A stretch of DNA of 54,253 nt, from assembly GCA_964565665.1 (NCBI GenBank), contig CAZMFZ010000005.1:1-54253 (forward strand), given 5' to 3'. Of this stretch, positions 141-27,473 are shown piece after piece; position 1 is the first letter of the stretch, and the number at the start of each line of letters is the position of its first letter. The notes under the pieces were generated by a model. It did no database searches, had not been told where the DNA came from, and saw only the letters and a list, made by a program, of their open reading frames with translations. The position numbers and the translations under genes are program-made. Origin of the DNA: an uncultured Bifidobacteriaceae bacterium. GTDB taxonomy: Bacteria > Bacteroidota > Bacteroidia > Cytophagales > UBA9547.

Positions 141-166
141 AAGCCCCCAACCCCCGAAGGGGGCTT
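141..166 (+). repeat. C5/G5 mini-hairpin repeat, copy a; possible terminator of the efflux operon
   Basis: aagcccccaacccccgaagggggctt. The G5CTT arm can pair with either AAGC5 (141-148) or C5 (151-155). Lies 83 nt downstream of the RND stop. The minus-strand RNA reads C5-UUCG-G5. Confidence 0.7.
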
Positions 167-3200: not shown

Positions 3201-3620
3201 AGAAAAATTCACCTCGATTACGCTAGGTTCGGAAGGTAAATCGTTGGGCAAATCTTGACGGGCTTTGTCCACCGCATCTTTTACGCGTTGCTTTGCAAGC
3301 TCTACAGCCACATTGGCATTGAACTCTACCACTACATTAGAGAAATCTTGAATGGAATTGCTGGTTACTTTTTTTACTCCATTGAGCGATTTTATCTGTT
3401 TTTCAAGTTTCCTTGTTACCAAATTTTCCATATCCACAGGCGAAGTACCTGGATAAATTGTACTCACATAAATGGTTGGGATCACTATATCAGGATAGCT
3501 TGCCTTGGGCAAGTTGATATAACTTGTAATCCCAAACAGGGTGAAAAAGAACGTCATTATATAAATGGCCGTCTTGTTGTTTACCGCCCACGAGGTCGGC
3601 CCGAATTCTTTGAAATTCAT
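249..3620 (-). CDS. RND efflux transporter, inner-membrane permease subunit (AcrB/HAE1-like)
   Basis: 1123-aa ORF. The 12-TM plus two large periplasmic loop architecture is visible in the translation. The N-terminus is typical of RND permeases, and the gene sits in an operon with MFP and TolC genes. Confidence 0.93.
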   Translation of the reverse strand: MNFKEFGPTSWAVNNKTAIYIMTFFFTLFGITSYINLPKASYPDIVIPTIYVSTIYPGTSPVDMENLVTRKLEKQIKSLNGVKKVTSNSIQDFSNVVVEFNANVAVELAKQRVKDAVDKARQDLPNDLPSEPSVIEVNFSDIPVMFVNISGNYPDELLKEYAEDAKDKIEGMKEISRVDVVGAREREVQIDVDMYKMQKATITLGDIERAVAYENLTISAGTVKVDEMKRSVRVSGEFTDPKKIEDIIIKSAFGSPVYLKDIAKVNYDFEEQESYARLAHKPVVTLNVVKRAGENLLTATDKVREIMTELQKTKYPKDLNVVITGDQSTQTRTSLHDLINTIIIGFILVTIVLMFFMGVTNAIFVGLSVPLSMFVAFMLMPSIGFSLNFIVLFAFLFALGIVVDDAIVVIENTHRIYHDEHIPIADAAKKAAGEVFVPVLAGTLTTLAPFIPLLFWPGIVGKFMYYLPVTLIITLLASLFVAFIINPVFAVNFMQKEEGDDPKKTFYQNNKWMVISIIVIASFAVICYLAGNFGMGNFLVFLAFLVVFNKFVLAGAIRGFQQKFIPALVRGYESIITWSLRGRHTVYLLLGTVLLFIGSIFLIVVRKPQIYFFPSSDPNFIYVNIGLPVGTHQLVTDSITKIVENKVFETVGENNPIVESIISNVTYGTNEASDQDRSPKPNRGKVSVSFVEFGKRDGESTKAYLDKIRSAIKDIPGTEITVSQESSGPPTGKPIEVLISGDELPDLIKISNDLKVYINAQGIPGIEELKSDLEERKPEILIEIDRDRANREGLSTGQIGLEVRNAIYGKEISKFRDGEDENPIMLRYQPSQRNKIDELVNLKITFRDMAMGGAVRQIPLSSVAKISYGNSYGGIKRRNNKRVVALGSNVLTGYSANDIVPKIEASLKNFPLKDGYEIKMGGEQEDQAETSNFLGVALLISLGLILFILVVQFNSISKPVIILTEIVFSIIGVFLGVGIFNMDFVIVMTGIGILGLAGIVVKNGILILEFTEELRARGLPIREALIQAGKTRLSPVLLTATATTLGLVPLAIGFNIDFVTIFTELNPHIFLGGDNVAFWGPLSWTMIFGLIFATLITLILVPCMYYLSERLKARLAGKDIATL

Positions 3621-3630
3621 TTTATAATTG

Positions 3631-3653
3631 CCCCCCGACCCCCGAAGGGGGAG
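3631..3653 (+). repeat. C5/G5 mini-hairpin repeat, copy b (left end of a MITE-like unit)
   Basis: ccccccgacccccgaagggggag, 11 nt upstream of the RND start codon. Inverted relative to copy c. Confidence 0.7.
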
Positions 3654-3736: not shown

Positions 3737-3760
3737 TTCCCCCTTCGGGGGTTAGGGGGC
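3737..3760 (-). repeat. C5/G5 mini-hairpin repeat, copy c (right end of a MITE-like unit)
   Basis: ttcccccttcgggggttagggggc. Its reverse complement is gccccctaacccccgaagggggaa. Ends 3 nt from the MFP stop codon. Confidence 0.7.
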
Positions 3761-7001: not shown

Positions 7002-7284
7002 ACTCCCTTTTTGTAAATCTATACTTATTTCAAAAAGACGATGCAAAACTATGGAAACTTTTTATTCAACCAAAGTTTATTTATTATTTTTTGTTTCCGC
7101 TGTTTTTATTCTCCAAAAGTATTGTTGAAATTTTGATTATAATACTAAAATTGGATGAAATGCAGTTTTTGCTTGTTAGAATGCACCAATGAAAACCCGA
7201 AACGTAATTCATAGTTTCAAGCAATGGTATCTATATTTATTTCTTTATCCTCAATTTTGTGATTTTGGTTATTTTTACGGCACC

Positions 7285-8496
7285 ATGACACAAATTCAAA
7301 TCACCCATATTACCAACCTGCAAGCCTCTGAGCCTACTAAATACGATGCTGCAGCGATTGGCGAAGATGAAATGCTACTCAATATGGGGCCGCAGCATCC
7401 CTCTACCCATGGCGTTTTGCGATTGGAATTGGTGACTGATGGCGAAACAATAGTAGATGTGGTGCCGCATATTGGCTATCTGCATCGCTGTTTTGAAAAA
7501 CATGCCGAAGCCTTGCCCTTCAACCAAATTATACCTTATGTAGATAGGCTTGATTATGTGGCATCGATGAATAATGAACACGCTTACGTGATGGGTGTGG
7601 AAAAAATGCTCGGCATTGAGAAAGATATTCCTAAAAGAGTAGAATACATCCGTGTGCTGGTTTGCGAACTCAATCGCTTGGCTTCGCATTTTATTGCCAT
7701 TGGCACGTACGGGGTCGATTTAGGCGCTGTTACTCCTTTTTTGTGGATGCTTAGAGATAGAGAACACATTCTTCGCTTGCTCGAATGGACAAACGGCTCA
7801 AGAATGCTCTATAATTATATATGGGTTGGCGGTTTGTTTTATGACATTCCTGTAGGCTTTGAGGAAAAATGCTTGGAATTTGTAAAGTATCTTATTCCCA
7901 AGCTTTTGGAAACAGAAGATATTCTATTAAAAAATAAAATCTTTATTGGACGCACGGCCAATGTTGGGGTTTTACCTTTGGATTTGGCAATTAATTACGG
8001 CTGCTCTGGGCCAGTATTGCGTGGCTCTGGTTTGAAACTTGATTTGCGTAAAGTAGATGCTTATTCGGTTTATCCGGAAATAGACTTTTCTATTCCTATC
8101 GGGCAAGGCAAAGTAGGTACGACTGGAGATTGCTGGGATAGAACAGATGTACGGATGCAGGAATGCAAAGAATCTATAAAAATAATTGAGCAATGCCTTG
8201 AAAAACTGTTGAAAGACCAAAAACGCACCTCAGATTTTGATCCTCAAGCATTAGTACCCAAAAGAATAAGGGTGCAGCCTATGGAATATTATAGTAGAGC
8301 TGAAAATCCGAAAGGGGAATTGGGGTTTTATTTCAAAACGGAAGGCAGAGGCGAAGTTCCTTTTCGTTGCAAAGTTCGGGCTTGTGGTTTTGTAAATCTT
8401 TCGGTAATTCACGAAATATCGAAAGGGGCTTTGCTTGCCGATTTGGTTGCCATTATCGGATCGCTCGATTTTGTAATGGGCGAAGTAGACCGATAG
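7285..8496 (+). CDS. nuoD: NADH-quinone oxidoreductase subunit D
   Basis: Strong match to the 49-kDa subunit (NMGPQHPSTHGVLRL, RLDYV, terminal GEVDR). Start placed at ATG 7285 (MTQIQI...). The track start at 7189 adds an implausible 32-aa extension. Confidence 0.93.
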   Translation: MTQIQITHITNLQASEPTKYDAAAIGEDEMLLNMGPQHPSTHGVLRLELVTDGETIVDVVPHIGYLHRCFEKHAEALPFNQIIPYVDRLDYVASMNNEHAYVMGVEKMLGIEKDIPKRVEYIRVLVCELNRLASHFIAIGTYGVDLGAVTPFLWMLRDREHILRLLEWTNGSRMLYNYIWVGGLFYDIPVGFEEKCLEFVKYLIPKLLETEDILLKNKIFIGRTANVGVLPLDLAINYGCSGPVLRGSGLKLDLRKVDAYSVYPEIDFSIPIGQGKVGTTGDCWDRTDVRMQECKESIKIIEQCLEKLLKDQKRTSDFDPQALVPKRIRVQPMEYYSRAENPKGELGFYFKTEGRGEVPFRCKVRACGFVNLSVIHEISKGALLADLVAIIGSLDFVMGEVDR

Positions 8497-8554
8497 TTTG
8501 AATGTGGAACGATTAATGCGGAATAAATAATTGAATCCATTTATTTTTTTTAAA

Positions 8555-9226
8555 ATGATTTGCAAAGCCAAGCCCGCGTTACACATTAACTTTTACATAT
8601 TTTTTCTATTCACTTTATTCCTTTCCAACTACGCCAACAGCCAGCCCGATTGGGAATTGGCACGCAACAGAAATGGGGTGTTGGTGTACACCAAATTTTA
8701 TAAAAATGAAGGGCTTAAGCAATTGAAAGCAGAAACCACAGTTTCAGGTGTAAGTCTTCACAGTTTTGCAGCCGTTTTTAAAGATGTTGAAAATACAATA
8801 CTATGGGCCGATAAGCTGAAATATGCCAAATGTTTGAAGAAAATAAGCCCTACCGAATACATCAATTATTTTATTACCGATATTCCTTGGCCATTGCGGA
8901 GGCGTGAAGGCATATTCAAAATAAATATGTATCAAGATAAAAATGACAATGCTTTAGTGATAGAATCTATAGCCTTTCCAGATTTTATACCCGAATCCGA
9001 TACCGCAGTGCGGATATTGGAAGCCAAATCAATATGGAAATTTACGCCCTTTGGAGACAACAATTTGGCAGTACAAAGCATATTTTATGCCGATCCAAGA
9101 GGATTTCCACCTTTTCTAGTAAATCTGTTTGTAACTGATTCTCCACTACAAACCATGACTAACTTGCGGGAATACGTGAAGCAGGAGAAATATAAAAATG
9201 CTAAATTTGATTTTATTAAAGATTGA
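8555..9226 (+). CDS. START/SRPBCC-domain lipid-binding protein with an N-terminal signal peptide
   Basis: WELARNRNGVLVYTK...LKAETTVSGVSL..F..VF.DVEN...W is START-like. Hydrophobic leader ending in ANSQ. ATG at 8555 preferred over TTG at 8531. Confidence 0.6.
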   Translation: MICKAKPALHINFYIFFLFTLFLSNYANSQPDWELARNRNGVLVYTKFYKNEGLKQLKAETTVSGVSLHSFAAVFKDVENTILWADKLKYAKCLKKISPTEYINYFITDIPWPLRRREGIFKINMYQDKNDNALVIESIAFPDFIPESDTAVRILEAKSIWKFTPFGDNNLAVQSIFYADPRGFPPFLVNLFVTDSPLQTMTNLREYVKQEKYKNAKFDFIKD

Positions 9227-9249
9227 AATTTGTAATCAACTTTTTGTAA

Positions 9250-9765
9250 ATGGCTTTTAACAAAATTGTACTAGAATTAAAAGTAGCCTTTGGAGAATCC
9301 ATAATTTTGGAATCCTCTCAATTAGATGCATTGATGCCTTTTGCTGTTATTACAAAAGACAATCTGTTGAAAGTGAGCGAGTTTCTACACACAAATCCAG
9401 AATGCTACTTCGACTTTCTGGCCTGTGTTACGGGGCTTGACAATGGCCTTGCAAAAGAAGGAGAAAAAGGCACAATGGAAGTGATTTATAATTTGTACTC
9501 AATTCCATTCGATTTCAAATTTTGCTTTAAAGTGATACTAGATAGAAATATTGAGGCTACAAATATGCCCGAAATAGAATCTGTAAGTCATATTTGGCGT
9601 ACAGCAAATTGGCAAGAAAGGGAAATTTTCGATTTGTATGGTATTAAATTTCTCCACCATCCCGATTTAAGAAGAATACTAATGCCTGCCGATTGGGAAG
9701 GCTTTCCACTCAGAAAAGACTACCATTTGCAGCAATATTATCACAATGTAAAAGTGGAATACTAA
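9250..9765 (+). CDS. nuoC: NADH-quinone oxidoreductase subunit C
   Basis: 171 aa with 30-kDa subunit motifs ([24 protein letters not shown]). Confidence 0.92.
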
Positions 9766-15372: not shown

Positions 15373-15524
15373 TAAAAGTATCGGGAAGATACTCCCGAAT
15401 CTACTTTAAGTAAGCCATGCAACACAGAGTCACAGTCATTTTCACCTTTTATGTGTTAAAGTTTTTGAATTCTTCAACCAAGATTGTATAAGAAGCTGAG
15501 GAAGATATGATTTGAAAAATATTT

Positions 15525-16556
15525 TCAGATGGGTGTATCAACTATTACAACTTCCCCTAAAGCTGTACCTACAGCAAAATTTTGATCGTTTGGACACCAC
15601 GAAAGCGCAGTAATATTACCTTGGAGTGTTCCTCCTGTCAATAATGAAGTAGATAATTTCGGGTACCAACATAAAAAAACACCTTTAGTATCTCCTGAGA
15701 CCATGATATTACTATTATGTGCAAAGTTCAATGAGGTTATTCTATGCTTGTGGCCTTGAAGCACAATAGGTTTTTGTCCTACTGGGGCTTTGCCACTAAT
15801 TTCCCATATTACTATTTCATTTCCGCAGTTAGAGGCCAGCATACTGGAATCGGCAGCCCACGAAAGTTCTTTCACTTTTCCTGCATAGCCCGACATTTCA
15901 CAATCATTGTCTGGTTCAAAAGGCAATGGCCAGAAATGAATTCTTGAATCTTGTGTTCCAGCACATATAAATTTGCCATCAGGACTCCACGAGAGAGAAA
16001 TAAGTGAATTTCGCCATGGTAAAATCTCGCTGGGTATTTCATTGTTTACATCAAAAATTTTTAAGTTGCCATAACTGCCCAAAGCAAATTCGGAACTGTC
16101 TTTTTTCCAAGTAATGGCAGATACGGTACTTTCAGGATTTATAAAGTGATAAACCAATTCCCCATTTCGAGCATATAGTTTAATATTCTTTCCTGACCCC
16201 ATTACAAAATACGCTCCATTAGGTGACCATTTCAGGTGCTCAACCCATTGCCAGCCTCCTTCAAATTGCTTCAGCAATTTACCTGTAGAAGTTTCCCAAA
16301 GTTTCACCAACCCATCTTGGCCAGCAGTTAAAAAAAGCAGTTCTTTTGGGGAATGCGTTATTGAAATAATTCCTACTTCATGGGCAGCTATTGAAAATAT
16401 GACTTTTTGCTTATTTGCATTTACTACTGCTAATTTGCCAGAGGAAAGTGCAATGCACAGATATGTGTTATCGAAACTCCAGGAGAGACCGCTAATATAA
16501 TCTTCAAATTTTGTAGTCCATGCTTCTAATCCTCGTTCTTGCTGAATAATACTCAT
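15525..16556 (-). CDS. Cytoplasmic WD40-repeat beta-propeller protein
   Basis: 343 aa with no signal peptide and about seven WD-like blades (e.g. LTAGQDGLVKLWE, AGTQDSRIHFW, VSGDTKGVFLCW). Start is 3 nt after the stop of the upstream COG0523 gene. Confidence 0.85.
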   Translation of the reverse strand: MSIIQQERGLEAWTTKFEDYISGLSWSFDNTYLCIALSSGKLAVVNANKQKVIFSIAAHEVGIISITHSPKELLFLTAGQDGLVKLWETSTGKLLKQFEGGWQWVEHLKWSPNGAYFVMGSGKNIKLYARNGELVYHFINPESTVSAITWKKDSSEFALGSYGNLKIFDVNNEIPSEILPWRNSLISLSWSPDGKFICAGTQDSRIHFWPLPFEPDNDCEMSGYAGKVKELSWAADSSMLASNCGNEIVIWEISGKAPVGQKPIVLQGHKHRITSLNFAHNSNIMVSGDTKGVFLCWYPKLSTSLLTGGTLQGNITALSWCPNDQNFAVGTALGEVVIVDTPI

Positions 16557-16559
16557 AAC

Positions 16560-17921
16560 TTATTTGCTCAATGCTTTTTCTTTCTTGGCGATGCAATCGT
16601 TGAATCCCTTTGTAAGTGCTTCTCTGTCTAGGTTTTTACCTATAAATACCACTTGGCTTTTCCTTTTTTCATCTGGCTTCCATGGTCTGTCAGGTTTGCC
16701 ATCGAATAGCATGTGCACACCTTGAAATACAAATCGGTCTTCATCGCCTTGCATATTAAAAATCCCTTTCATACGGTAAATATCTGTGCCTTTGAACTGT
16801 AACAAACCGCCTAGCCACATATTTACTGCTCCTATTTCTAGGCTTTTATCGGTTTCTAAGCCTACTGAGGTTACTTCGCTATTGTGTTCATGGCTGTGTT
16901 CAAACTCATAAGACTGTAAAAGTTCAGGTTCTTTACCATTTTGTAGCCATTTCATAGAAAACTCATCGGGATGGTGCTGTGTAAAAATTCCATATATCCC
17001 TTCTTTATTAAACTTGGCTCTGAAATTATTTTCCTCACTTTCAAGCACAAGTGTACTTACTTGGCTGTTGGTTTTAAGGAATTTCCCTTGATGAACTTTC
17101 TCTGTTTTTTCTGAAAACAATCGAACGGCTGATTTTTTAACATCTGCAAAATCATTGAGGTTGTCAACTTTCAAAATCAGAATATCCATGCTTGGATCGG
17201 GACCTTCTTGCAATGTCAGTTGGTATTCCATTTCATTAAACTGATAAAAACCAGCAAATTCAAAAGGCATTTCTTCAGTCATAAATTCAGGATTCAGTTC
17301 TGCTTTAGCTTCTAAATCAAACGCATGTACATCTAAAATTTTATCCATGTCAATAGCTGCATCTTGTGTGCGAAAAATCTTAGCTTGTGAGTTCATGGCT
17401 TTGATTTTCTTTTCCAGTTTGATAAGATCAGCATCGTTAACTAAATCGGTTTTATTCAGCAAAATGACATCGGCAAAGGCTATTTGTTCCTGGCATTCGG
17501 AACTGTCGTCAATATGCTGCCACACGTGCATGGCATCTACAATTGTAATGATTGCATCGAGAGAAAATTCTTCTTTCATTTCATCATCTACCCAAAATGT
17601 TTGGGCTACGGGAGCTGGATTAGCCAAGCCAGTAGTTTCTACAATGATATGGTCGAGCCTGTCTTTTCTACGCATGAGTTGCCCCAAAATACGAATAAGG
17701 TCGCCCCGAACGGTGCAGCAAATACAACCATTGTTCATTTCAAATATTTCTTCATCGGCACCAATTACCAGTTCATTGTCTATACCTATTTCGCCAAACT
17801 CGTTTTCAATTACGGCAATTTTTTTGCCGTGATTTTCGGATAAAATGCGGTTTAATAAGGTGGTTTTACCTGAGCCTAGAAAACCTGTGAGTACGGTAAC
17901 CGGTATTTTTTTATTTTCCAT
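16560..17921 (-). CDS. COG0523 (CobW/G3E) metallochaperone GTPase with an inserted domain of about 140 aa
   Basis: P-loop [22 protein letters not shown] motif, NKTDL, short His cluster (EFEHSHEHN) and CobW_C end (IYRMKGIF...VVFIGKNLD). About residues 205-345 have no counterpart in usual 320-350-aa members. Confidence 0.88.
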
Positions 17922-17927
17922 AATATT

Positions 17928-17950
17928 AAGCCCCCAGCCCAGAAGGGGAG
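17928..17950 (+). repeat. C5/G5 mini-hairpin repeat, copy d (degenerate)
   Basis: aagcccccagcccagaaggggag, 7 nt upstream of the COG0523 start at 17921. Confidence 0.55.
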
Positions 17951-18040
17951 TTTAGTTGACGATAATCATGTTGGGGCCACGAATACATGATTTTATGAAT
18001 TTATTGGAAAGCCTAGGTAGTTACAATTTTGCTTAATTTG

Positions 18041-18070
18041 CCCTCACCCCAACCCCTCCGAAAAGGAACG
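18041..18070 (+). repeat. C5/G5 mini-hairpin repeat, copy e (most degenerate)
   Basis: ccctcaccccaacccctccgaaaaggaacg. Same C-tract/AA/C-tract/GAA architecture, 24 nt downstream of the 90-aa ORF. Confidence 0.4.
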
Positions 18071-18093
18071 TAGCAATCTGGCCTTCTATCAAT

Positions 18094-18366
18094 TTATTTT
18101 TCAATAATGGTTTCGATATTACTTTGCTCAATGTCTCTCAGCTTTACAAAAACCAATGGTTTTTGTATTTTTATTTTATTAATAGCATAACCATTTATCA
18201 TAAGTATTACCGTTTCCACACAAGGGCATCTTTCATCTGCACATTGAACTTCTTTTATAACGATGGCACTCCCTTCGCCTAAATCAAATATGTCTTTTAC
18301 CCATGCTATAATTGCTTTGAGATTTTCAGTATTGGATTTATCGGCAGGATTTATATATGAACTCAT
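18094..18366 (-). CDS. Small hypothetical protein with a CxxxxCxC motif
   Basis: 90-aa ORF (..VQCADERCPCVETVILM..) with no overlapping larger ORF. Bracketed by repeat copies e and f. No family recognised. Confidence 0.45.
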   Translation of the reverse strand: MSSYINPADKSNTENLKAIIAWVKDIFDLGEGSAIVIKEVQCADERCPCVETVILMINGYAINKIKIQKPLVFVKLRDIEQSNIETIIEK

Positions 18367-18440
18367 CCCTCAGTTTTGCATTTTTTACAATACTTAATAT
18401 TCAATATATGGGTGATAACTAAGCCAAACGAACCCAAATG

Positions 18441-18467
18441 AAAGCCCCCTAACCCCCAAAGGGGGAA
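18441..18467 (+). repeat. C5/G5 mini-hairpin repeat, copy f
   Basis: aaagccccctaacccccaaagggggaa, located between the ferredoxin stop (18503) and the 90-aa ORF start (18366). Confidence 0.7.
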
Positions 18468-18502
18468 TTGCCGAAGACCCAAGAGATTTTTTTAACTTAA
18501 TT

Positions 18503-18841
18503 TTATTGTTTTTCTCCATTTTCTAGTTCAAAATATCCAGTATGAAGGTGCTTAACAGTTAATATTTCGTCACGTATCAATACCGTATTTACAAATTCTG
18601 CTGCGTTTTCTGCCTTCATTTCTTTATACCAAACGTAACCAGGGCTTACGATTACCACAGGGCTATCGTAGCACCTTCCATTACACAAAGTTTTTGTGCT
18701 ATGAACAGATTCATCCAATCCTGCCTCTTTTATGGCTTTTCTGATTGCCTTTGTACTTTCAGCAGCACCCGCAGCTTGGCATGCATCGCCATTGCAAAAG
18801 AAAATGTGGTTACGTACCTTAGTCAAATCTCTGATTACCAT
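18503..18841 (-). CDS. Thioredoxin-like [2Fe-2S] ferredoxin domain protein
   Basis: 112 aa with a Cys pattern FFCNGDAC ... LCNGRCYDSP (Cx4C ... Cx3C) in a Trx-like Fd context. Its ATG overlaps the ZIP stop (TAATG). Confidence 0.7.
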   Translation of the reverse strand: MVIRDLTKVRNHIFFCNGDACQAAGAAESTKAIRKAIKEAGLDESVHSTKTLCNGRCYDSPVVIVSPGYVWYKEMKAENAAEFVNTVLIRDEILTVKHLHTGYFELENGEKQ

Positions 18842-19620
18842 TATTTTATAGCATTTTCAAGTACATTAATAAACAACATAGAGGCCACGCCAAAGCAAAT
18901 GGCCACACCTTGAACGATGGGCTTTGAAAATACAGATGTAGTATGCAGTACCGGAATGAGATCGGATGAAGCTATGTAAATAAAGCCTCCAGCTGCTATG
19001 GGCAAAAGATAGGCCACTGGCACATCCATTACACTCCCAAGCAAAAGCACGCAAATAGCACCCAAGGGGCAGGTAAGCGAACAAATAAAATTGTACCAAA
19101 CGGCTTTTTTGGGTGTATATCCGCCATGAATTAAAGTGCCAATATCGCCCAATTCTTGCGGGATTTCATGAATAACAATCGCTATAAATGTGGTGATGCC
19201 CAATTTAATATCTACCATAAAACTACCTGCTATCAAAGTACCATCTACAAAATTGTGTATAGCATCGCCTATCAGGTTCATTTTTGCCATGGGTGTAGGT
19301 TGGTCTTTAGTGTTTGCATTAGTAATAGGGTATATTTCATGACTATGCCGCCAACGCACTACTTTTTCAAGAAAAAAGAAAAGAATGATTCCTCCAATGG
19401 TAAAAAGCAACACCTGTTGCAAATCGCCTATTCTGAAATAAGCATCAGGAATTAGGTGCAAGAAGGCATCTCCAAGCAACACGCCCACCGCAAGACTCAC
19501 TAGAAATTGGATGGAATTTTTTAGTTTTTCCTGTTTTACAAATAATGCGAATGCACCTACAAGGGCAATTACACAAACAAGTAAACTAGCAAAAATGCTA
19601 TATAGCCAAATTGCTATCAT
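18841..19620 (-). CDS. ZIP family divalent-metal permease (ZupT-like)
   Basis: HNFVDGTLIAGSF and HEIPQELGDIGTLI signature helices. Start moved to ATG 19620 (MIAIWLYS...), which sits 1 nt after the upstream stop. Confidence 0.88.
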   Translation of the reverse strand: MIAIWLYSIFASLLVCVIALVGAFALFVKQEKLKNSIQFLVSLAVGVLLGDAFLHLIPDAYFRIGDLQQVLLFTIGGIILFFFLEKVVRWRHSHEIYPITNANTKDQPTPMAKMNLIGDAIHNFVDGTLIAGSFMVDIKLGITTFIAIVIHEIPQELGDIGTLIHGGYTPKKAVWYNFICSLTCPLGAICVLLLGSVMDVPVAYLLPIAAGGFIYIASSDLIPVLHTTSVFSKPIVQGVAICFGVASMLFINVLENAIK

Positions 19621-19621
19621 A

Positions 19622-19939
19622 TTAATTGTACTTAAAATCTTCGTGCAGTTCGAGTAATAATTTGTAATAATCTGTATCAGAAAGTATAAAATCACTTGCA
19701 TGACATTGTACTAATCCTTTTTCCAATAATTCTTTATTAAGGTTTTTTCCTATGAATACCAATTTGGTTTGTCTTTCGTCAGTCTCCCAACTTCCAAAGG
19801 ATTCTACCACGTATTGGTTGTGAACCGATTGAATAATAAATTTTTCGTTTTCATCTGCAACGAATAATATTCCTTTTATACGGTAAATATTGCCTCGACT
19901 TTCAGTTAAAATCACTCGAATGAACCTATCGAATCTCAA
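19622..19939 (-). CDS. Stand-alone CobW C-terminal domain protein (possible remnant of a third COG0523 paralogue)
   Basis: 105 aa, TTG start. RGNIYRIKGILFVADENEKFIIQSVHNQY..ERQTKLVFIGKNLNKELLEKGL aligns by eye with the C-terminus of the 453-aa COG0523. No GTPase domain, and only 121 nt separate it from the upstream gene. Confidence 0.6.
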   Translation of the reverse strand: MRFDRFIRVILTESRGNIYRIKGILFVADENEKFIIQSVHNQYVVESFGSWETDERQTKLVFIGKNLNKELLEKGLVQCHASDFILSDTDYYKLLLELHEDFKYN

Positions 19940-20060
19940 AATATCAAGTAATGATTTTGCATGGGAAATGATCTATTTTGTGGTAGTTACGGTCGTTTGG
20001 TTTGGTGGCTCACCGTTTAAACCGTGGGCGATAATAAAAAATACCGCTAACGTTTCAGCC

Positions 20061-21269
20061 TTACAACACATTGTCCCATTGACTTTCACCTTTTACGTGC
20101 TTGAAGTTTTTAAATTCTTCATCCGTGCACAAGCATTCTTCCAGCTCTTCTGTCACTCGCTGTATATCAATATCTTGTCCTATAAATACAATTTCGTTCA
20201 TGCGATCGCCATAGGTTTTGTCCCATTTAGATTCAATAGTCTTTTTATTTTCTACAAAATCAACAAAAGTAATCCTTTCCGCAAAAGGCATGCTTGCCCA
20301 CCAAACGCCTGCACTTTCAGCTCTTATACTCCCGCCCGCCTGGCTCCAGTTAATAGCAGTAGTAGCATGTGACGCAACCCACATCAAACCTTTACTTCTG
20401 ATAATGCCTGCTGGAAAATTTTCGTTGAAATATTGCCAAAGCCTTTCTGGATGAAAAGGGCGTTTGTTCCTAAATACAAACGATTTTATGCCATATTCTT
20501 CTGTCTCTGGGGTGTGTTCTCTGTTTAATTCTTCTTTCCAAGCCTCAGTTTCTGAGGCTTCATCAAAGTCAAACATGCCTGTGTTCAATATTTGTAGCAA
20601 AGGAATTTTGCTAAAAGAGGTGTCAATTACTTTAGCTTTCGGGTTGAGCTTTTTTATCACTGCTTTCAACTCTCCTGCTTGACTGGGAGAAACCAAATCT
20701 GTCTTATTTACCAATATCACATTGGCAAATTCTATTTGATCCAGCAGCAAATTCACAATCGTCCGCTTATCGTTAGGATCATCGTCATTCAGTTTACGTG
20801 TCCACACGGTATCGATGCTACCAAAATCTTTGGCGAAATTAAAAGCATCTACCACCGTAACCATGGTGTCGAGTTGGGCATATTTAGATAAATCTACTTT
20901 GCCATCTTCGGACACAAAACTAAAAGTTTGGGCTATCGGAATAGGTTCTGAAATACCTGTGCTTTCTATTAATAGATAATCGAAACGGTTTTCTAAAGCC
21001 AGTTTTTCGACTTCGATCATTAAATCTTCTCTCAATGTGCAGCATATACAACCGTTGGACATTTCAACAAGTTTTTCTTCCGTTCTTGAAAGTGTGTTTT
21101 CTTTCGATACCAAAGCGGCATCTACATTTATTTCGCTCATGTCATTCACAATCACGGCTACTTTTAAGCCTTCTTTATTATGTAAAATGTGGTTGAGCAA
21201 AGTAGTTTTACCTGCGCCTAGGAATCCACTGAGTACGGTGACGGGAAGTTTTTGAAAAGGTGTTTTCAT
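20061..21269 (-). CDS. COG0523 GTPase, ZigA/ZagA(YciC)-like zinc metallochaperone subfamily
   Basis: 402 aa. [27 protein letters not shown] and the subfamily-typical [26 protein letters not shown] segment as in B. subtilis YciC. Confidence 0.88.
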
Positions 21270-21274
21270 GGTAT

Positions 21275-21754
21275 TTATTTATGTTCTTTTAGCATCTTTA
21301 CATCGTCTGCCTTGATCTTATCATGGTCGGCCGTCATTTGGGTATGCTGTTTTTTCATGTTTTCGTGGTCTGCTACCATTTTATCATGTTCCTCTTGTAC
21401 CGTCAAATCGTTTAAAGTTTTCTCGGTATGTTGCTTCTCTATATCCGCATGTGTTTGAGTTAATAATTTATGCTCTTCCGCCATTTGTGCGTGTTTGTCC
21501 ATCATTGCCACATGTTGCATTTCCATGGTTGTATGCGAGCTATCCTGAGTAGAACCTACTATTTGCTTGTGTTGCATTACCCATTCAAGATGTTCGTTTT
21601 CCAATTGGGTATGTTCCGCTTCAAGTGTGGAATCTTCCATTTCAAAATCTTTGTGCGATTGCGCTAATTTTTGGTGAAGATTATTCTTAATACAACCTGT
21701 TAACACAATGGCAATCGCAAAAGAAATTGCAAAAGCACTTTTATAAAAGTTCAT
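21275..21754 (-). CDS. His/Met-rich lipoprotein with an HxxMxxxH heptad pattern
   Basis: Signal peptide plus lipobox (VLTGC). The mature part is helical and low in complexity, e.g. [27 protein letters not shown], with His and Met alternating at i/i+3/i+7. Confidence 0.75.
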
Positions 21755-21796
21755 CTGGATAGATTTGGATTGGTGGGATGTTAGAATAATTTAGAT

Positions 21797-21833
21797 AAAC
21801 CAATCTGTGATTATTTATTTCACAGATTGGTTT
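21797..21833 (-). terminator. Perfect 14-bp-stem hairpin between the lipoprotein and His/Met genes (intra-operon attenuator or RNA-stability element)
   Basis: aaaccaatctgtga-ttatttatt-tcacagattggttt. Starts 7 nt after the lipoprotein stop. Only a weak U-tract follows on the minus strand. Confidence 0.45.
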
Positions 21834-21839
21834 AAAAGA

Positions 21840-22418
21840 TTAATCCACAACAGTTACATCAAACTCAAGATCGAAATCGGCTTCACCTTCTTCTATATTG
21901 TTTGTTTTAGTGATACCGTCAAAATGCCTGAGGGTGACACGAAGTTTACCCATTCCAGTTACGCTACCCACTGTGGCGGTGTATGTCAAGCCTATGGGTT
22001 GGTTATTCTTATCTAGGTCTGTAATTGCCAATGCCATAGTAGTGCCTGAAGTTGTCGAAGGACTGTACACATAATGAAATCTATGCGCATCGGCTTCTTC
22101 TGCTATTTCCTCATTTACAAACTTAATTGGGGTTTTGGTATCATCGAAAATACTCACGGTGCCAATGTAGGCCAGTCCCTTTTTCAACGTTAGTCCTGTA
22201 ATAGTTGAGGGTTTTGGACCACTGTCATCCGGATCTGTAAATGTTGCAGTTCGAACATCAGTTCCAGAGGTGAAAGTCAGCATAATTCGGGTAATGGCCT
22301 CCTCATCTCCGGCTCCTGTGCCTTGGTCTTTCGGTTTTACTTCATCTTTAGTACATGAACTAAGTACAAGCGTAGCCATGATGGCTGCTGTTGAAATGGT
22401 GTAAATTAACTTTTTCAT
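21840..22418 (-). CDS. Lipoprotein of unknown function encoded directly after the TonB-dependent receptor
   Basis: 192 aa, lipobox LSSCTK, beta-rich Thr/Gly-rich mature part. 30 nt downstream of the TBDR stop. Confidence 0.7.
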   Translation of the reverse strand: MKKLIYTISTAAIMATLVLSSCTKDEVKPKDQGTGAGDEEAITRIMLTFTSGTDVRTATFTDPDDSGPKPSTITGLTLKKGLAYIGTVSIFDDTKTPIKFVNEEIAEEADAHRFHYVYSPSTTSGTTMALAITDLDKNNQPIGLTYTATVGSVTGMGKLRVTLRHFDGITKTNNIEEGEADFDLEFDVTVVD

Positions 22419-22448
22419 TTTTTTTAAATTGTTTTAAAGTGTGATTAA

Positions 22449-24800
22449 TTAAACATTGTATTTATAAATAGATAATGGAATTTTGACCCTTAAAATGAAA
22501 TTTCGCCCGGGTTCGTCTGCGAAATAGCGATAGCGGTTCATGTACTCCCTGTAAGAGGTATTGAATAAATTGTTTACTTGAAAATTGATATTGATAAGTT
22601 GCTTTCCTATTGCTACATCAGCGCCTAACTCCAATGCAGCCAAAGCATAGCCCTGTGGAGGTGGAGCAAAATCACTATTTGGGTTTACCCTAGTTTGTGT
22701 GGCAGTAAAGGAGCCTGTCACTTGGCCATACAAGGCATTTTTTTTCAAAAATTGAGAAAATTCTGGTTGCCAACGTGCCGATACTTCACCACGGTATGGC
22801 GGTATATAAACCATGTAATCACTAAAGGTTTCATTGTAGGCATTGACAGCCGACCCTTTGGCTACCAAATTCACTTGCTTGGTAAGTGCAAAAATTGCAT
22901 TCAAATCTATCCCGTAAAACGAGGCATTGGTCTGTGTGTATGCAAACTCCAACAGTTGCCCGACTCTCGTTTCCCTGTATAATAACGTGGGTTGCAGATA
23001 TATATAATTGTTGATATAGGCATAATGAACAGTGGCCTCAAAAGACAGCCTAGAACTTTGGTAGTTAGCACTACTAACAAATTTATAACCCTGTTCAGCC
23101 TTTAAATTGGCATTGCCTACTTCCACAAATACACTTCCGTGCACCTGCCCGTTTACAAACATCTCGTTGGGCGTAGGCGGACGAAATGTGGCACCTACAT
23201 TGCTTTTCAAAGTGAAGTGTGGCGACAAGCGAAAACTAGCGCCCATATTGCCCGAAAAATTTTGATACCTGTAGCTGCTGTCGCTGAATTGCGACCCTCT
23301 TCTGAACAAATAGTTGTAATTCTTGACATCATACCGCATACCAGCTTCAAGTTCTAGGCGGTTTAGCTTCCACTTTTCGATGATAAAAGCCCCATACGAA
23401 TTACTAAAATAAGTTGGAATAAGAAACCGTGTACCATCCCACTCATTGACCTGTTGCTGGTAAACTACACCAATTAAACCCTGAAAATGTTGTCCTTGAA
23501 AATGGTCAAATACCAATTCTGCCGATTGGGTAGCCAGTTTAAAATCATACTGCGGACTTGATTTTAAAGAATCCTTTAAAGGAGGATGCCTGTCGTACTC
23601 TTGCCTATGGTTCCATTGGCTGCCTAATGTCAATGATAATTTACCAATGGTCGAAATATTGAATTGCGTTTTAAGGCTGAACAAATGGTGCGTTACATTT
23701 TGGTATCCTCTGTTAATCGCGTAGGTAAACGGCTCTGCTAATCTTGGTTGTGCTCGTTGAATGGCCAATGCCAGGTCTTTTGTGTTGTTGGGCTGAGCAT
23801 CTGGCAATATGCCCAATGTGGTATTAAAACGGCTAAAGTAGGCTTCTACACTGAATTTTTTCTTTAAATATCCCAAAGAAGCCGAATAATTACCTTCTCT
23901 ATAACTAGTATTAGACAATATATATTTGGGAGCTTCGGCACTCCCAGCGTGTTTGTAACTGCCCTGTACCCTCCATTTCAAATCAGGCAACCTGGCAATA
24001 TTGCCTTCTAACATCAGCGAACCAACCCCCATTCTGTTGTTGGAAAAACCTCCCAAATTGAGTTCACCACCCAATCCGCTCATATTCTTGAGTGATTTGG
24101 GCTCCACAATTATCACACCAGCAATGGCATCCGAACCATACCGAAGTCCTGAAGCTCCTTTCACAACTGTCAATTTATTGGTAATAAATGGGTCGATTTC
24201 CGGTGCGTGTTCAGCTCCCCATTGCTGGGTTTCTAGCCGCAATCCGCCATTCATAATCAGTAACCTGTTGCTATGCATACCGTGCAACACAGGTTTTGCT
24301 ATGCTAGGTCCGGTCTGGAAAGTGAACATGCCAGGAATTTCCCTTAGCGATTCTGCCAAATTAAGCCCACGAGTTCTATCCAAGGCTTTGGCCTCGAGCG
24401 TATTAATTGGCTGAGATACTAAATATATTTCCTGCCTTTCTCCCATTATCACTACAGATTCGAGCACGTTAGTGTCAGCTTGAAGCACAATATCCATGTG
24501 CGTAAATTTATTAATCACAATGGTTTGCTCCAATGGTTTATATCCTAAGTAACTTACTTTTACTAAAAACTTACCTGCACAAAGTGATGCCATTCTATAC
24601 TCCCCTTTTTCGTTGGTTTCCGTTCCTTTGTTTAGCTCTTGAATATAGATAATTGCGCCAAGCAAAGGCTTTTGCGAGATCCCTTCGTATACATGACCTT
24701 TAAAGGTATAGGTACATATTTTTGAGGTGTCAGTTTGGGCGTGCGTAATTGTTAGGCAGAAAACCATCATTAACAAGGTAATCTTTGAGATTAAAGTCAC
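22449..24800 (-). CDS. TonB-dependent receptor with an N-terminal CarboxypepD_reg domain
   Basis: 783 aa with a signal peptide, a CarboxypepD_reg-like segment (GHVYEG...KGEYRM..L..GKFLVKVSYLGY), a plug, and a long beta-barrel with alternating aromatic pattern. No SusD partner. Confidence 0.9.
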   Translation of the reverse strand: MTLISKITLLMMVFCLTITHAQTDTSKICTYTFKGHVYEGISQKPLLGAIIYIQELNKGTETNEKGEYRMASLCAGKFLVKVSYLGYKPLEQTIVINKFTHMDIVLQADTNVLESVVIMGERQEIYLVSQPINTLEAKALDRTRGLNLAESLREIPGMFTFQTGPSIAKPVLHGMHSNRLLIMNGGLRLETQQWGAEHAPEIDPFITNKLTVVKGASGLRYGSDAIAGVIIVEPKSLKNMSGLGGELNLGGFSNNRMGVGSLMLEGNIARLPDLKWRVQGSYKHAGSAEAPKYILSNTSYREGNYSASLGYLKKKFSVEAYFSRFNTTLGILPDAQPNNTKDLALAIQRAQPRLAEPFTYAINRGYQNVTHHLFSLKTQFNISTIGKLSLTLGSQWNHRQEYDRHPPLKDSLKSSPQYDFKLATQSAELVFDHFQGQHFQGLIGVVYQQQVNEWDGTRFLIPTYFSNSYGAFIIEKWKLNRLELEAGMRYDVKNYNYLFRRGSQFSDSSYRYQNFSGNMGASFRLSPHFTLKSNVGATFRPPTPNEMFVNGQVHGSVFVEVGNANLKAEQGYKFVSSANYQSSRLSFEATVHYAYINNYIYLQPTLLYRETRVGQLLEFAYTQTNASFYGIDLNAIFALTKQVNLVAKGSAVNAYNETFSDYMVYIPPYRGEVSARWQPEFSQFLKKNALYGQVTGSFTATQTRVNPNSDFAPPPQGYALAALELGADVAIGKQLININFQVNNLFNTSYREYMNRYRYFADEPGRNFILRVKIPLSIYKYNV

Positions 24801-24872
24801 TTAGGGAATACATTAAAAGCCTTCTTCTGGAAGACAAAATAAATAGAGGAAGATGAGCGGATAGAAATATCC

Positions 24873-25199
24873 TTATAAAAATGGGGGGGCTCGCCCTTGA
24901 GAAAAAATGGTTACAAATTTTAAATCGGCAAATACTACATGAAAAAAGCTTAATTCCAACCGCAGTAAAAGGTTTGATGAGGTTATGCATTCATGAAATA
25001 ATTCATTAAATATATGCACCGCACAGATAGCACACTTGTCTTTGCTTACACCGAATACGACTTTACCTTGCGCTTTGTGTTGATGAAGTTCGTTATCTTC
25101 AGCCTCGTGTGTATGCAAAAGATTAGCCGCCACTTGCGTAAAAAATAGGTTTGTGAGCAACACACATGAAACAGCAATAAGTAAAACTCTATTTTTCAA
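24873..25199 (-). CDS. Small secreted His/Cys protein, first gene of the metal cluster
   Basis: 108 aa, TTG start and signal peptide, then LLHTHEAEDNELHQH...KCAICAVH...HEC...APP. Loosely reminiscent of small Cys proteins found ahead of metal TBDRs (DUF2946 / HYC_CC_PP types), but not a confident match. Confidence 0.5.
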   Translation of the reverse strand: MKNRVLLIAVSCVLLTNLFFTQVAANLLHTHEAEDNELHQHKAQGKVVFGVSKDKCAICAVHIFNELFHECITSSNLLLRLELSFFHVVFADLKFVTIFSQGRAPPFL

Positions 25200-25225
25200 T
25201 CCTATCTATGAAGCATTCTAAGGTA

Positions 25226-25267
25226 CAAATATAAAGAAAAGAATAGTATTTGCAACAAAGTTGCAAC
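25226..25267 (-). promoter_or_regulatory. Candidate Bacteroidota sigmaA promoter (TTG-N19-TATATTTG) with a doubled GTTGCAAC palindrome over the -33 element
   Basis: Minus strand reads GTTGCAACtttGTTGCAAAtactattcttttcttTATATTTG. The -7 box (25233-25226) ends about 26 nt before the TTG start at 25199. The two 8-mers are centred 11 bp apart. Confidence 0.45.
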
Positions 25268-25328: not shown

Positions 25329-26576
25329 CTATGCACTTTGTTTTTCTTCATTACCTGAAGTTGAATTCGGCTCTATAATCTTCAGAATGTTGTGTCCCAT
25401 TTTGTCGCGTTTGGTTTCCAAATATTTCTGGTTGTGAATATTTGGCTCTATTTCAATGGCAATGCTGTCTACAATTTCAAGTCCGTAGCCCATCAAACCG
25501 ACTCTTTTTTTAGGATTATTTGAAATGAGTTTAATTTTTGAAATACCCAAATCACGTAATATCTGTGCCCCAACGCCATAATCACGCTCGTCCATCTGAA
25601 AACCAAGCGATAAATTGGCCTCTACAGTGTCCATACCCATTTCCTGTAGTTTGTAGGCTTTCAGTTTGTTGAGTAGGCCAATGCCACGCCCTTCCTGATT
25701 CATGTACAACACTACGCCTTTGCCCGATTTATTTACCATTTCCATAGCCGCATGAAGTTGTTGGCCACAGTCGCAGCGTTCAGAGCCAAAAATATCGCCT
25801 GTAACGCACGAAGAATGCACCCGAACCAATACAGATTCATCGGCATTCCAACTGCCTTTAACCAAAGCCAAATGTTCTTCGCCAGTATTAATTTGTTTGT
25901 AAGCAACCAAATCAAATAAACCCCATTGCGTGGGCATTTGTACCGATATTTCACGTTTAATCAGGCTTTCGGTAGCAATGCGATAGGCTATCAAATCTTT
26001 TATACTCACCAATTTCAAATCAAATTTATCGGCAATTTTCCTCAAGTCGGGCAAGCGAGCCATTTCTCCATCGTCTTTCAATACTTCTACCAACACACCT
26101 GAGGGATTTAAGCCTGCCAAACGAGCAAAATCAAGAGCTGCTTCGGTGTGTCCAGTTCTTCGCAACACTCCGCCATTTCTGGCCTTTAGTGGAAATATAT
26201 GGCCAGGTCTGCCCAGCTCTTGAGGTTTGGTAGCTGGGTTTACCAATGCTTGCACGGTTTTCGACCTGTCTTGAGCAGATATTCCTGTAGTGCAGCCGTA
26301 GCCAAGCAAATCTACTGAAACAGTAAATGGAGTAGCATGGGTAGAAGTGTTGCTACCAACCATCATATCGAGGCCAAGTTCTTCACAACGTGCCTCAGTG
26401 AGGGAAATGCAAATCAGCCCTCGGGCTTCCTTGGTCATAAAATTGATGATTTCGGGAGTCGCCATTTCTGAGGCACATATCATATCGCCTTCATTTTCAC
26501 GGTCTTCATCATCAACCACTATTATTATTTTACCTTTTTTTATGTCTTCAATGGCCGATTTTATGGTGTTAAGCAT
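25329..26576 (-). CDS. ribBA: Bifunctional 3,4-dihydroxy-2-butanone-4-phosphate synthase / GTP cyclohydrolase II
   Basis: 415 aa. RibB half ([10 protein letters not shown]) and RibA half ([20 protein letters not shown]). Full length. Confidence 0.95.
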
Positions 26577-26749: not shown

Positions 26750-26771
26750 CTCCCCTTTGGGGTTGGGGGTT
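26750..26771 (-). repeat. C5/G5 mini-hairpin repeat, copy g
   Basis: ctcccctttggggttgggggtt. Its reverse complement is aacccccaaccccaaaggggag. Ends 10 nt before the purQ ATG. Confidence 0.6.
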
Positions 26772-26780
26772 TTTATTATT

Positions 26781-27473
26781 ATGAAATTTGGAGTAGTAGT
26801 TTTCCCGGGGAGTAATTGTGATGCTGATTTGGTATATGCCCTTCACGATATTATGGGCCAAGAGGTAGTGAAATTGTGGCATAAGGATACCAACCTTCAA
26901 GGTTGTGATTTTGTATTTGTACCTGGCGGCTTCTCTTATGGCGATTATTTGCGTTCGGGAGCCATTGCGCGTTTTTCGCCCATAATGAATGAAGTAGTGG
27001 CTCATGCCAATAAAGGAGGTTATGTAATGGGCATTTGCAATGGATTTCAAATATTGGCAGAAGCAGGTTTAGTACCTGGAGCGTTGATTCGGAATTCTGG
27101 GCGATTGTTTATTTGTAGCAATCAGTATATCAAGCCTATTTCTACTTCTACCATTGTTACTGAAAATATGGATGGCTCAAAAGCCTACAATATTCCCATT
27201 GCCCATGGTGATGGCAGGTATTATGCTCATGCCGACACACTAAAGCAGTTGCAAGACAATGATCAGATTATTTTTAAATATTGTGATAACGCAGGAAATA
27301 TAACGGAAGAAAGCAACCCTAATGGCTCAATACTAAATATTGCCGGAGTAAGCAATAAAGCCAAAAATGTGTTTGGTATGATGCCACATCCAGAAAGAGC
27401 GGTAGATGTCGATTTGAGAAATACAGATGGAAAAGCAATTTTTGAGAGCATATTATCTTTGGTGGGAGCGTAA
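26781..27473 (+). CDS. purQ: Phosphoribosylformylglycinamidine synthase, glutaminase subunit PurQ
   Basis: MKFGVVVFPGSNCD..., GGFSYGDYLR, GICNGFQIL, MPHPER motifs. Start set to ATG 26781. Confidence 0.93.
   Translation: MKFGVVVFPGSNCDADLVYALHDIMGQEVVKLWHKDTNLQGCDFVFVPGGFSYGDYLRSGAIARFSPIMNEVVAHANKGGYVMGICNGFQILAEAGLVPGALIRNSGRLFICSNQYIKPISTSTIVTENMDGSKAYNIPIAHGDGRYYAHADTLKQLQDNDQIIFKYCDNAGNITEESNPNGSILNIAGVSNKAKNVFGMMPHPERAVDVDLRNTDGKAIFESILSLVGA

Follow-up and report, generated by a model that had tools for sequence, protein, structure and literature searches.

A probable zinc-starvation gene cluster in a Bacteroidota contig carries a long-form COG0523 GTPase and a WD40 partner behind a Zur-type operator

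Introduction

In prokaryotes, genes for COG0523 proteins of subfamily 5 cluster with WD40 genes, ZnuABC, HoxN-type transporters, SapB and creatininase-like genes, and several of these clusters lie behind Zur sites (Haas et al. 2009, BMC Genomics 10:470, PMC2770081). An example is the operon znuCBA-COG0523-5-WD40-sapB of Bradyrhizobium, Nitrobacter and R. palustris, and two COG0523 paralogues occur together in the Zur operon dksA2-yciC-COG0523 (Haas et al. 2009, PMC2770081). The account of the COG0523-5-WD40 pair was a comparative-genomics prediction (Haas et al. 2009, PMC2770081), and no later study of the pair was found in the searchable literature. Most GTPases of the bacterial COG0523 family still await assignment of a client and of a way in which metal is delivered. 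Here we describe a row of minus-strand genes on a 54,253-nucleotide stretch of contig CAZMFZ010000005.1 (the window), from a Bacteroidota genome, in which such a pair stands with a TonB-dependent receptor (TBDR), a ZIP permease and a second COG0523 gene behind a candidate Zur operator. The cluster is read as a zinc-starvation island repressed by Zur, to which a probability of about 0.75 is given.

Genes are numbered g01 to g11 in the direction of transcription (Table 1). As in the operons of Haas et al., the COG0523 gene g10 is followed directly by the WD40 gene g11, near a metal transporter and behind a Zur-type site. It differs from them in three ways: g10 has a beta-rich insert of ~130 amino acids where their proteins have a short His-rich linker, transport is by a TBDR and a ZIP permease rather than by ZnuABC, and a ferredoxin and a protein with a C-x4-C-P motif are added. 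The shorter COG0523 protein, g05, shares with ZigA of A. baumannii and ZagA (YciC) of B. subtilis the subfamily 1 architecture, the CxCC motif and the link to Zur, but scores below the 600-bit equivalog cutoff of the ZigA model; the clients in those systems are HutH or FolE. The receptor g02 resembles ZnuD of Neisseria and other Zur-regulated TonB zinc receptors in being a TBDR under a Zur-type site, and ZnuD is its best solved relative; unlike ZnuD, it has a Bacteroidota-type CarboxypepD_reg N-terminal domain and accessory lipoproteins, and the two align in the plug only. The permease g07 matches the ZupT/ZIP permeases of Zur regulons in its Pfam Zip domain and zinc-regulated context, but its score stays under the cutoff of the ZupT equivalog, and translational coupling links its gene to that of a ferredoxin. 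In the eukaryotic ZNG1 (CBWD)-METAP1 system, the GTPase metallochaperone ZNG1, which Haas et al. (2009, PMC2770081) place likewise in COG0523 subfamily 5, depends on protein-protein docking for access to its client; the docking device is an N-terminal CPxLxP peptide that bacterial homologues lack. In the present cluster, the adaptor role may fall to a WD40 protein encoded separately.

The logic of the cluster, with receptor, permease and COG0523 gene behind one site, is thus that of a known type of Zur regulon, as a specialist in zinc homeostasis would expect. An earlier note on this DNA had held that no described system couples two COG0523 paralogues with a ferredoxin, a WD40 propeller and a His/Met-rich protein. 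That claim was overstated, because Zur-regulated operons of subfamily 5 COG0523, WD40 and transporter genes, and an operon with two paralogues, had been published in 2009; in the searchable literature, neither the ferredoxin nor the 90-residue cysteine protein was found. What appears to be new in detail is the insert of the long form, the C-x4-C-P family and the link to a ferredoxin.

Operator and promoter

The related loci used throughout (L numbers) came from a genome scan seeded with the long COG0523 protein, in which 595 relatives were confirmed and 80 loci kept. The palindrome upstream of g01 is the sole exact match to its motif in the window, and a position weight matrix (PWM) built from 15 Bacteroidota sites (consensus TAAATGCAACAATGTTGCATTTA) likewise returned one site, with a score of 25.6 and the next best at 7.6. 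The motif was observed 15 times in 8 Bacteroidota loci, where 0.6 were expected from shuffled sequences, 14 times in 11 Myxococcota/Oligoflexia loci (0.17 expected) and 4 times in 61 loci of other phyla (2.2 expected). Sites in syntenic loci are intergenic and adjoin Fur-family genes (Pfam FUR; L001, L002, L003, L004, L007, L049 and L083), and in related loci they are also found 5′ of NicO, ferredoxin, ZigA-like and His-lipoprotein genes. The palindrome is the same motif as the Zur boxes published for beta-proteobacteria, such as aAAATGCAACATTGTTGCATTat (Mfla_1232) and CAgtcGCAACtTTGTTGCAaTaa (Reut_A0161) (Haas et al. 2009, Additional file 5, PMC2770081), and the present cluster is from Bacteroidota. 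The occurrence of this motif in loci of Bacteroidota, Myxococcota and Oligoflexia makes it usable for mapping zinc regulons there.

A scan for sigma-70 promoters was uninformative (36 found, 36.7 expected), and the Bacteroidetes -7 motif was used instead. The octamer TATATTTG, read from 25233 to 25226, is the one TAnnTTTG that falls in an intergenic region of the minus strand from 15.4 to 25.4 kb; we take TAnnTTTG to be the -7 consensus of Bacteroidetes sigma-A promoters. The palindrome overlaps the -33 region of this promoter, the -33 TTG lying within the operator. Inside the cluster, no further intergenic promoter motif was found in the TAnnTTTG scan and no further Zur box in the PWM scan. 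Control by a B12 or FMN (flavin mononucleotide) riboswitch was excluded because Rfam returned no riboswitch and no other RNA family in the window.

Because the operator matches published Zur boxes and related loci carry Fur-family regulators and ZnuA, we interpret the palindrome as an operator for Zur, and zinc as the metal. The earlier note had considered metal specificity unreadable; a Zur-type operator over the promoter, together with the ZnuA and Fur-family genes of related loci, points to zinc.

Cluster layout

All eleven co-directional minus-strand open reading frames (ORFs) that had been listed for the cluster, from 25199 down to 15525, are present, and Pfam and NCBIfam confirmed the domain calls for the TBDR, the COG0523 proteins, CobW_C, the ZIP permease, the ferredoxin and the WD40 protein (Table 1). 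The count should be put as ten intact genes and one remnant, g06. Pfam and NCBIfam scans of the window proteins gave no Pfam family for g01, g03, g04 or g09.

Table 1. Features of the cluster and of the GC-rich repeat, as positions in the window
Feature	Position	Strand	Basis or remark
Zur-box-type operator, perfect 7-3-7 palindrome TTGCAAC-AAA-GTTGCAA	25250..25266	none	
Bacteroidetes-type -7 box TATATTTG	25226..25233	-	-33 TTG inside operator
g01, 108-residue protein with N-terminal transmembrane or signal segment	24873..25199	-	ORF list
g02, TBDR	22449..24800	-	Pfam
g03, 192-residue lipoprotein, downstream of TBDR	21840..22418	-	lipobox LSSC
15-bp RNA hairpin, g03-g04 gap	21796..21834	-	fold energy
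g04, 159-residue His-rich helical-repeat lipoprotein	21275..21754	-	composition, homologue alignment
g05, 402-residue ZigA/YciC-like COG0523 GTPase	20061..21269	-	Pfam, NCBIfam
g06, 3′ remnant of third COG0523 gene, CobW_C part	19622..19948	-	tblastn to L001
g07, ZIP-family permease	18841..19620	-	Pfam Zip 8e-48
g08, predicted thioredoxin-like [2Fe-2S] ferredoxin	18503..18841	-	Pfam PF01257
GC-rich repeat copy CCCCCTTTGGGGGTTAGGGG, g08-g09 gap	18446..18465	-	
g09, 90-residue cytoplasmic protein, invariant C-x4-C-P motif	18094..18366	-	alignments
GC-rich repeat copy, 9 nt 5′ of g10 start	17931..17948	-	
g10, 453-residue COG0523 GTPase with ~130-residue beta-rich insert	16560..17921	-	Pfam
g11, cytoplasmic WD40 propeller	15525..16556	-	Pfam WD40
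Bidirectional terminator-like hairpin between convergent WD40 and DsbD genes	15381..15398	none	
All GC-rich repeat copies	144-163(-), 3632-3651(-), 3739-3758(+), 17931-17948(-), 18446-18465(-), 26752-26769(+)		

Several junctions had been described as very tight, and the four that were named are so: 5 nt between g04 and g05, 1 nt between g06 and g07 (with the ZIP start at ATG 19620, as in the L001 orthologue), a TAATG overlap of the g07 stop and the g08 start, and 3 nt between g10 and g11. The description does not extend to the remaining gaps of 72, 30, 85, 121, 136 and 172 nt, of which only that of 30 nt is short. Hairpins or GC-rich repeat copies lie in three gaps of 85-172 nt, one repeat copy each in the g08-g09 and g09-g10 gaps. 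The hairpin between g03 and g04 folds at -20.2 kcal/mol (z = -7.5; 0 of 200 shuffles folded equally well) and would be either an attenuator or terminator or an mRNA-stabilizing element.

The cluster is flanked downstream by a convergent DsbD gene, with a hairpin of -12.3 kcal/mol (z = -3.2) in the intergenic region, and upstream by ribBA (25329-26576, same strand). The latter encodes a 3,4-dihydroxy-2-butanone 4-phosphate synthase / GTP cyclohydrolase II, a zinc enzyme. It is co-directional with the cluster and ends 62 nt before the Zur box. It was rejected as a cluster member: it lies upstream of promoter and operator, and it is near the COG0523-WD40 pair in 2 of the 80 loci. There is no evident terminator between ribBA and the cluster, and read-through into the cluster is possible.

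Long COG0523 protein and WD40 partner

The domains PF02492 and PF07683 of g10 are separated by ~130 extra residues. Both g10 and g05 carry a GFLG(A/S)GKT Walker A motif and GCICC, and the CxCC metal site is invariant in the g10 family, whose members are 56-75% identical across phyla. The insert (approximately residues 215-345, between the G domain and CobW_C) has its own invariant residues, E217, P219, E221, G240-P241-D242, H316, E320, F321, H344 and H346, with H344-x-H346 inside an HSHEHD motif. An AlphaFold2 (AF2) model gave a confident beta-rich domain for the insert, with a predicted local distance difference test (pLDDT) score of ~90; fold searches with the g10 model returned YjiA, HypB and SRP GTPases only, and the insert was left without a match. 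For a long COG0523 protein, no conserved insert of this beta-rich kind with invariant His is described in the searchable literature.

The partner g11 matched WD40 (PF00400) with 104.9 bits, along with many propeller models. A WD40 gene stands immediately 3′ of the long COG0523 gene in 54 of the 76 loci with enough downstream sequence, and within 10 kb in 8 more. Homologues of g11 conserve the motifs MxGYxxK and GPxGxxPxxLxxH, and no conserved Cys/His cluster was found in the family; g11 looks more like a scaffold than a metal site. The periplasmic zinc-binding propeller AztD was rejected as a model, since g11 is without a signal peptide and without a conserved metal-ligand cluster. A metagenome scan seeded with the WD40 protein gave three near-identical contigs and one doubtful match of 21% identity, and no diverse relatives; the three contigs (L087-L089, 97-99% identical to the WD40 gene) are from microbial-mat metagenomes, which suggests a microbial mat as the habitat of the organism.

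In S. meliloti, genes for a creatininase, a 364-residue COG0523 protein and a WD40 protein stand in a row, a context given for subfamily 5 by Haas et al. (2009, PMC2770081). The COG0523 protein is identical to g10 at 61% of positions in the G domain and 48% in the C-terminal domain, and is without the insert, having ~64 residues where g10 has ~150; the WD40 protein is 26% identical to g11 (E = 2e-27). The published S. meliloti Zur site was not found near the locus that was examined, and no identity of this locus with SMc03799 is claimed. Like the described subfamily 5 genes, g10 is found clustered with a WD40 gene and metal transporters, with Zur-type sites; g10-g11 would so be a long-form relative of the subfamily 5-WD40 pair.

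Small cysteine proteins

The g08 protein exceeded the PF01257 cutoff (29.5 bits, cutoff 24.8), and its cysteines C16, C21, C53 and C57 (C-x4-C...C-x3-C) are invariant in 9 homologues. Its relatives in the PDB are the N-terminal [2Fe-2S] domains of HydB/NuoF-type subunits (4e-10) and Aquifex Fd4 (2e-4), and it is predicted to be a thioredoxin-like ferredoxin that binds a [2Fe-2S] cluster. In 7 of 8 Bacteroidota loci its gene is immediately 5′ of the COG0523 module, either directly or separated from it by a g09-type gene, and in most cases it follows a NicO or ZIP gene. One Gemmatimonas locus has a homologue ~5 kb downstream of the COG0523-WD40 pair.

A single-sequence search with g09 returned only g09, and a profile search was needed; it gave 2196 relatives, none with a Pfam family or an informative name apart from one labelled YlaN/UPF0358 by the Joint Genome Institute, which is probably spurious. 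The family comprised 1397 clusters in a representative library. The AF2 model of g09 (pLDDT 84.9) had no significant fold match in the PDB, the best having E = 0.29. All three independently chosen relatives adjoin genes for a 450-residue COG0523 protein and a 351-residue WD40 protein, with TBDR, ZnuA, FUR, MerC or NicO genes nearby, and one further such locus has an unassigned gene for 99 residues at the g09 position. Because a hidden Markov model of the family found members in 14 of the 80 loci, g09 is not an obligatory component but an accessory, so far seen only beside the long COG0523-WD40 pair. Domain fusions of the family gave no functional clue beyond one fusion to a CDF transporter and one to a helix-turn-helix domain. 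The CDF (Cation_efflux) fusion (L001:12398-13288) has a g09-like domain without the two cysteines at its N-terminus, and its gene is directly 3′ of the WD40 gene.

Uptake genes

The g01 protein combines its N-terminal segment with HxH, CxxC and C-terminal R-A-P-P motifs. Homologues of ~110 residues with the same four features are encoded 5′ of TBDR genes in L001, L002, L003, L004, L081 and L082, and NCBIfam gave a weak full-length match to the LIC10965 family (E = 0.017). The receptor g02 has CarbopepD_reg_2, Plug and barrel domains in Pfam; its closest solved relative is ZnuD (4RDR, 5e-12, plug region only), and it falls far below the NCBIfam cutoffs for ZnuD, heme and copper receptors. Orthologues of g02 (39% identity) occur in L001 and L004, each followed by a g03 orthologue.

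The lipoprotein g04 contains 16 His, ~13 of which are conserved in the homologues of L002, L003 and L004; the homologous gene adjoins a Zur box in L002 and L003. Conservation in the helical repeat falls chiefly on His, Glu and Asp, not on the 12 Met of g04. No homology to SilE/PcoE was found in Pfam or NCBIfam at E ≤ 0.01, which leaves the label SilE/PcoE-like, given earlier to this protein, without support from homology; the resemblance is compositional only. The permease g07 scored 163.7 bits against ZIP (PF02535, cutoff 35.1) and 66.9 against the ZupT equivalog (cutoff 252), and is 66% identical to its L001 orthologue, which begins at the equivalent Met.

Short COG0523 protein and remnant

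The g05 protein, with PF02492 (cobW) and PF07683 (CobW_C), had ZigA (NF038288) as its best NCBIfam model, at 551.4 bits against a cutoff of 600; by this score it is close to ZigA yet cannot be filed as ZigA. Orthologues of 63-68% identity are present in L001, L003, L004 and L007. The ORF g06 had been described as a lone CobW_C gene. It does encode CobW_C only, but it aligned by tblastn to residues 261-357 of a 363-residue COG0523 protein of L001 (45% identity). The alignment begins 3 codons 5′ of the TTG taken as start, and the 121-nt gap upstream is without a G domain. The ORF g06 is the 3′ remnant of a third COG0523 gene, and intact copies of this paralogue are present in related Bacteroidota loci.

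Conservation in other genomes

A neighbourhood survey with the long COG0523 protein as seed, as proposed in the earlier note, found that the arrangement recurs in other genomes and is not unique to this one. Among the phyla that encode the long COG0523 protein are Bacteroidota, Verrucomicrobiota, Myxococcota, Melainabacteria, Chloroflexota, Acidobacteriota, Planctomycetota, Poribacteria, Gemmatimonadota, Actinomycetota and Pseudomonadota. In L001, a metagenome-assembled genome (MAG) of Flavobacteriales, the order is almost the same, with a single box and a divergent Fur-family gene: g01-like, TBDR, lipoprotein, outer-membrane protein, ZigA-like, ZIP, 90-residue protein, long COG0523, WD40, CDF fusion and third COG0523, all gaps being 75 nt or less. 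In L002, L003, L004, L007 and L049 the modules recur in different orders, a NicO permease often standing in the place of ZIP, and these loci contain HupE/UreJ, DUF6702 and additional TBDRs as well. The related loci include the zinc-linked families ZnuA, FUR, HupE/UreJ, CDF and FolE.

Plasmid pPA-MXU-125 of Pantoea agglomerans (L091:7001-9357) encodes a 450-residue long COG0523 protein and, overlapping it, a WD40 protein annotated as 'hypothetical protein', the pair being next to a divergent ABC importer. Since it is carried on this enterobacterial plasmid, the pair is mobile. Cultured hosts of the pair are Mucilaginibacter (sp. UYCu711), Pedobacter (sp. UYP24) and, with the short form, S. meliloti, in addition to the Pantoea plasmid. 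In a Ferruginibacter MAG (L007:11377-12030), folE (PF01227, GTP cyclohydrolase I) lies between the long COG0523 and WD40 genes; the folE product is zinc-dependent and of a known COG0523 client type.

Interpretation and alternatives

Gene content, and conservation in other genomes, bear out the earlier reading of the locus as a metal acquisition and metallochaperone cluster that covers the route from outer membrane to cytoplasm. Under zinc sufficiency, a Fur-family Zur, of the kind encoded beside homologous clusters elsewhere, would bind the palindrome and block transcription, because the palindrome overlaps the -33 element of the sole recognizable promoter. When zinc is scarce, the promoter would fire and the genes would be read largely as one long transcript, which internal hairpins and repeat elements may modulate. 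The products g01, g02 and g03 would carry zinc or a zinc chelate across the outer membrane, g04 would bind zinc in the periplasm, and the ZIP permease g07 would move it into the cytoplasm, zinc being the presumed substrate of each transporter. There, g05 (ZigA/YciC-type) and g10 (subfamily 5-type, with the extra His-bearing beta domain) may hand zinc to client proteins in a GTP-driven transfer. The GTPase g10 would work with g11, most likely a client or adaptor scaffold, in a physical complex that may include g09, and g08 and g09 would work with g10; g06 is a dead remnant of the third paralogue.

Several observations weigh against the reading as a zinc-starvation island repressed by Zur. The window contains no Fur-family gene, and NCBIfam assigned no Zur subtype to the Fur-family regulators of related loci. 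The receptor g02 reached 99.6 bits with the NCBIfam ZnuD model NF038289, whose cutoff is 950. NicO permeases, which usually transport Ni/Co, are found in related loci. The gaps of 85-172 nt, including the one with the strong hairpin after g03, could split the unit, and in other Bacteroidota the modules are ordered differently and have boxes of their own.

The main uncertainty is whether the 9.7 kb is read as a single transcript. The genes could instead be a mosaic in which three or four modules (g01-g03, g04-g08, g09 and g10-g11), each with its own transcript, came to stand head-to-tail by chance, with only the first under the Zur box; we regard this as rather unlikely. It would account for the gaps of 85, 136 and 172 nt, for the -20 kcal/mol hairpin after g03, for the GC-rich repeat insertions in two gaps, and for the five loci (L002, L003, L004, L007 and L049) in which modules in other orders each stand behind their own Zur box. 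However, neither a Bacteroidetes -7 box nor a Zur-like site lies in any internal gap, the hairpins are without U-tracts, and L001 keeps the order with gaps of at most 75 nt and a single box. A single transcript is favored because of the absence of internal promoter motifs and boxes and the tight arrangement in L001, while attenuation or processing is what the long gaps and the g03-g04 hairpin speak for; the cluster is plausibly one regulated unit whose genes would be co-transcribed.

That the metal is not zinc but Ni/Co (from the CobW/NicO relatives), Cu (from the Met-rich lipoprotein and an OprC-like TBDR) or Fe/heme is judged improbable. NicO takes the place of ZIP in related loci, g02 also resembles OprC and heme receptors, g04 has 12 Met and a ferredoxin is present; yet the operator equals published Zur boxes, the cluster itself encodes a ZigA-like COG0523 protein and a ZIP permease, related clusters encode ZnuA, g04 conserves His/Glu/Asp and not Met, and no B12 riboswitch or other Rfam match was found. 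The presence of a [2Fe-2S]-type protein linked to the core module (ferredoxin, 90-residue protein, long COG0523 and WD40) in Bacteroidota bears also on what this module does. Rather than being a zinc insertase, it could serve ribosome or translation remodelling, for which the mycobacterial COG0523 protein MRF is an example, or redox or Fe-S handling, during zinc limitation. COG0523 proteins differ in function, a member that recruits a ribosome hibernation factor is listed in NCBIfam, and the WD40 partner is without a conserved metal-ligand cluster. This alternative is considered unlikely: the CxCC site is invariant and the insert has invariant His, Glu and Asp, across phyla the module shares its regulation and its location with zinc transporters, and folE lies inside the COG0523-WD40 pair in L007.

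For the same module, a more specific proposal is offered tentatively. The long COG0523 protein, its translationally coupled WD40 protein, the C-x4-C-P protein and, in Bacteroidota, the ferredoxin may together be an uncharacterized and widespread bacterial metallochaperone machine, in which the WD40 protein would act as client adaptor, like the docking peptide of ZNG1, and the small cysteine proteins would feed or gate metal. If so, the binding partner of the WD40 protein, once identified, would be the first client to be defined for a subfamily 5 COG0523 protein of bacteria. The locus and its relatives sharpen the COG0523-WD40 pair to a long form with a conserved insert and add two recurrent small partners without family assignment, and with these details the old question of the role of subfamily 5 COG0523 proteins and their WD40 partners becomes testable.

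Other observations in the window

The GC-rich repeat is a 20-nt element of the form CCCCC-TTCG-GGGGG-TT-GGGGG(C); pairing of its C-run is possible with either of the two G-runs. The pattern had 12 overlapping matches with at most 1 mismatch, where 0.05 were expected in the window, and six copies, all intergenic (Table 1). Four of the six end 9-17 nt 5′ of a start codon on the same strand, namely those of the long COG0523 gene, of two genes that begin at 3620 and near 128, and of purQ at 26785. The repeat could be an element like the repetitive extragenic palindromic (REP) sequences or a translation or stability signal. At 7189-9765 (+), genes for a NuoD-like (49-kDa) and then a NuoC-like (30-kDa) NADH dehydrogenase subunit are in an unusual order, with a START-domain gene between them.

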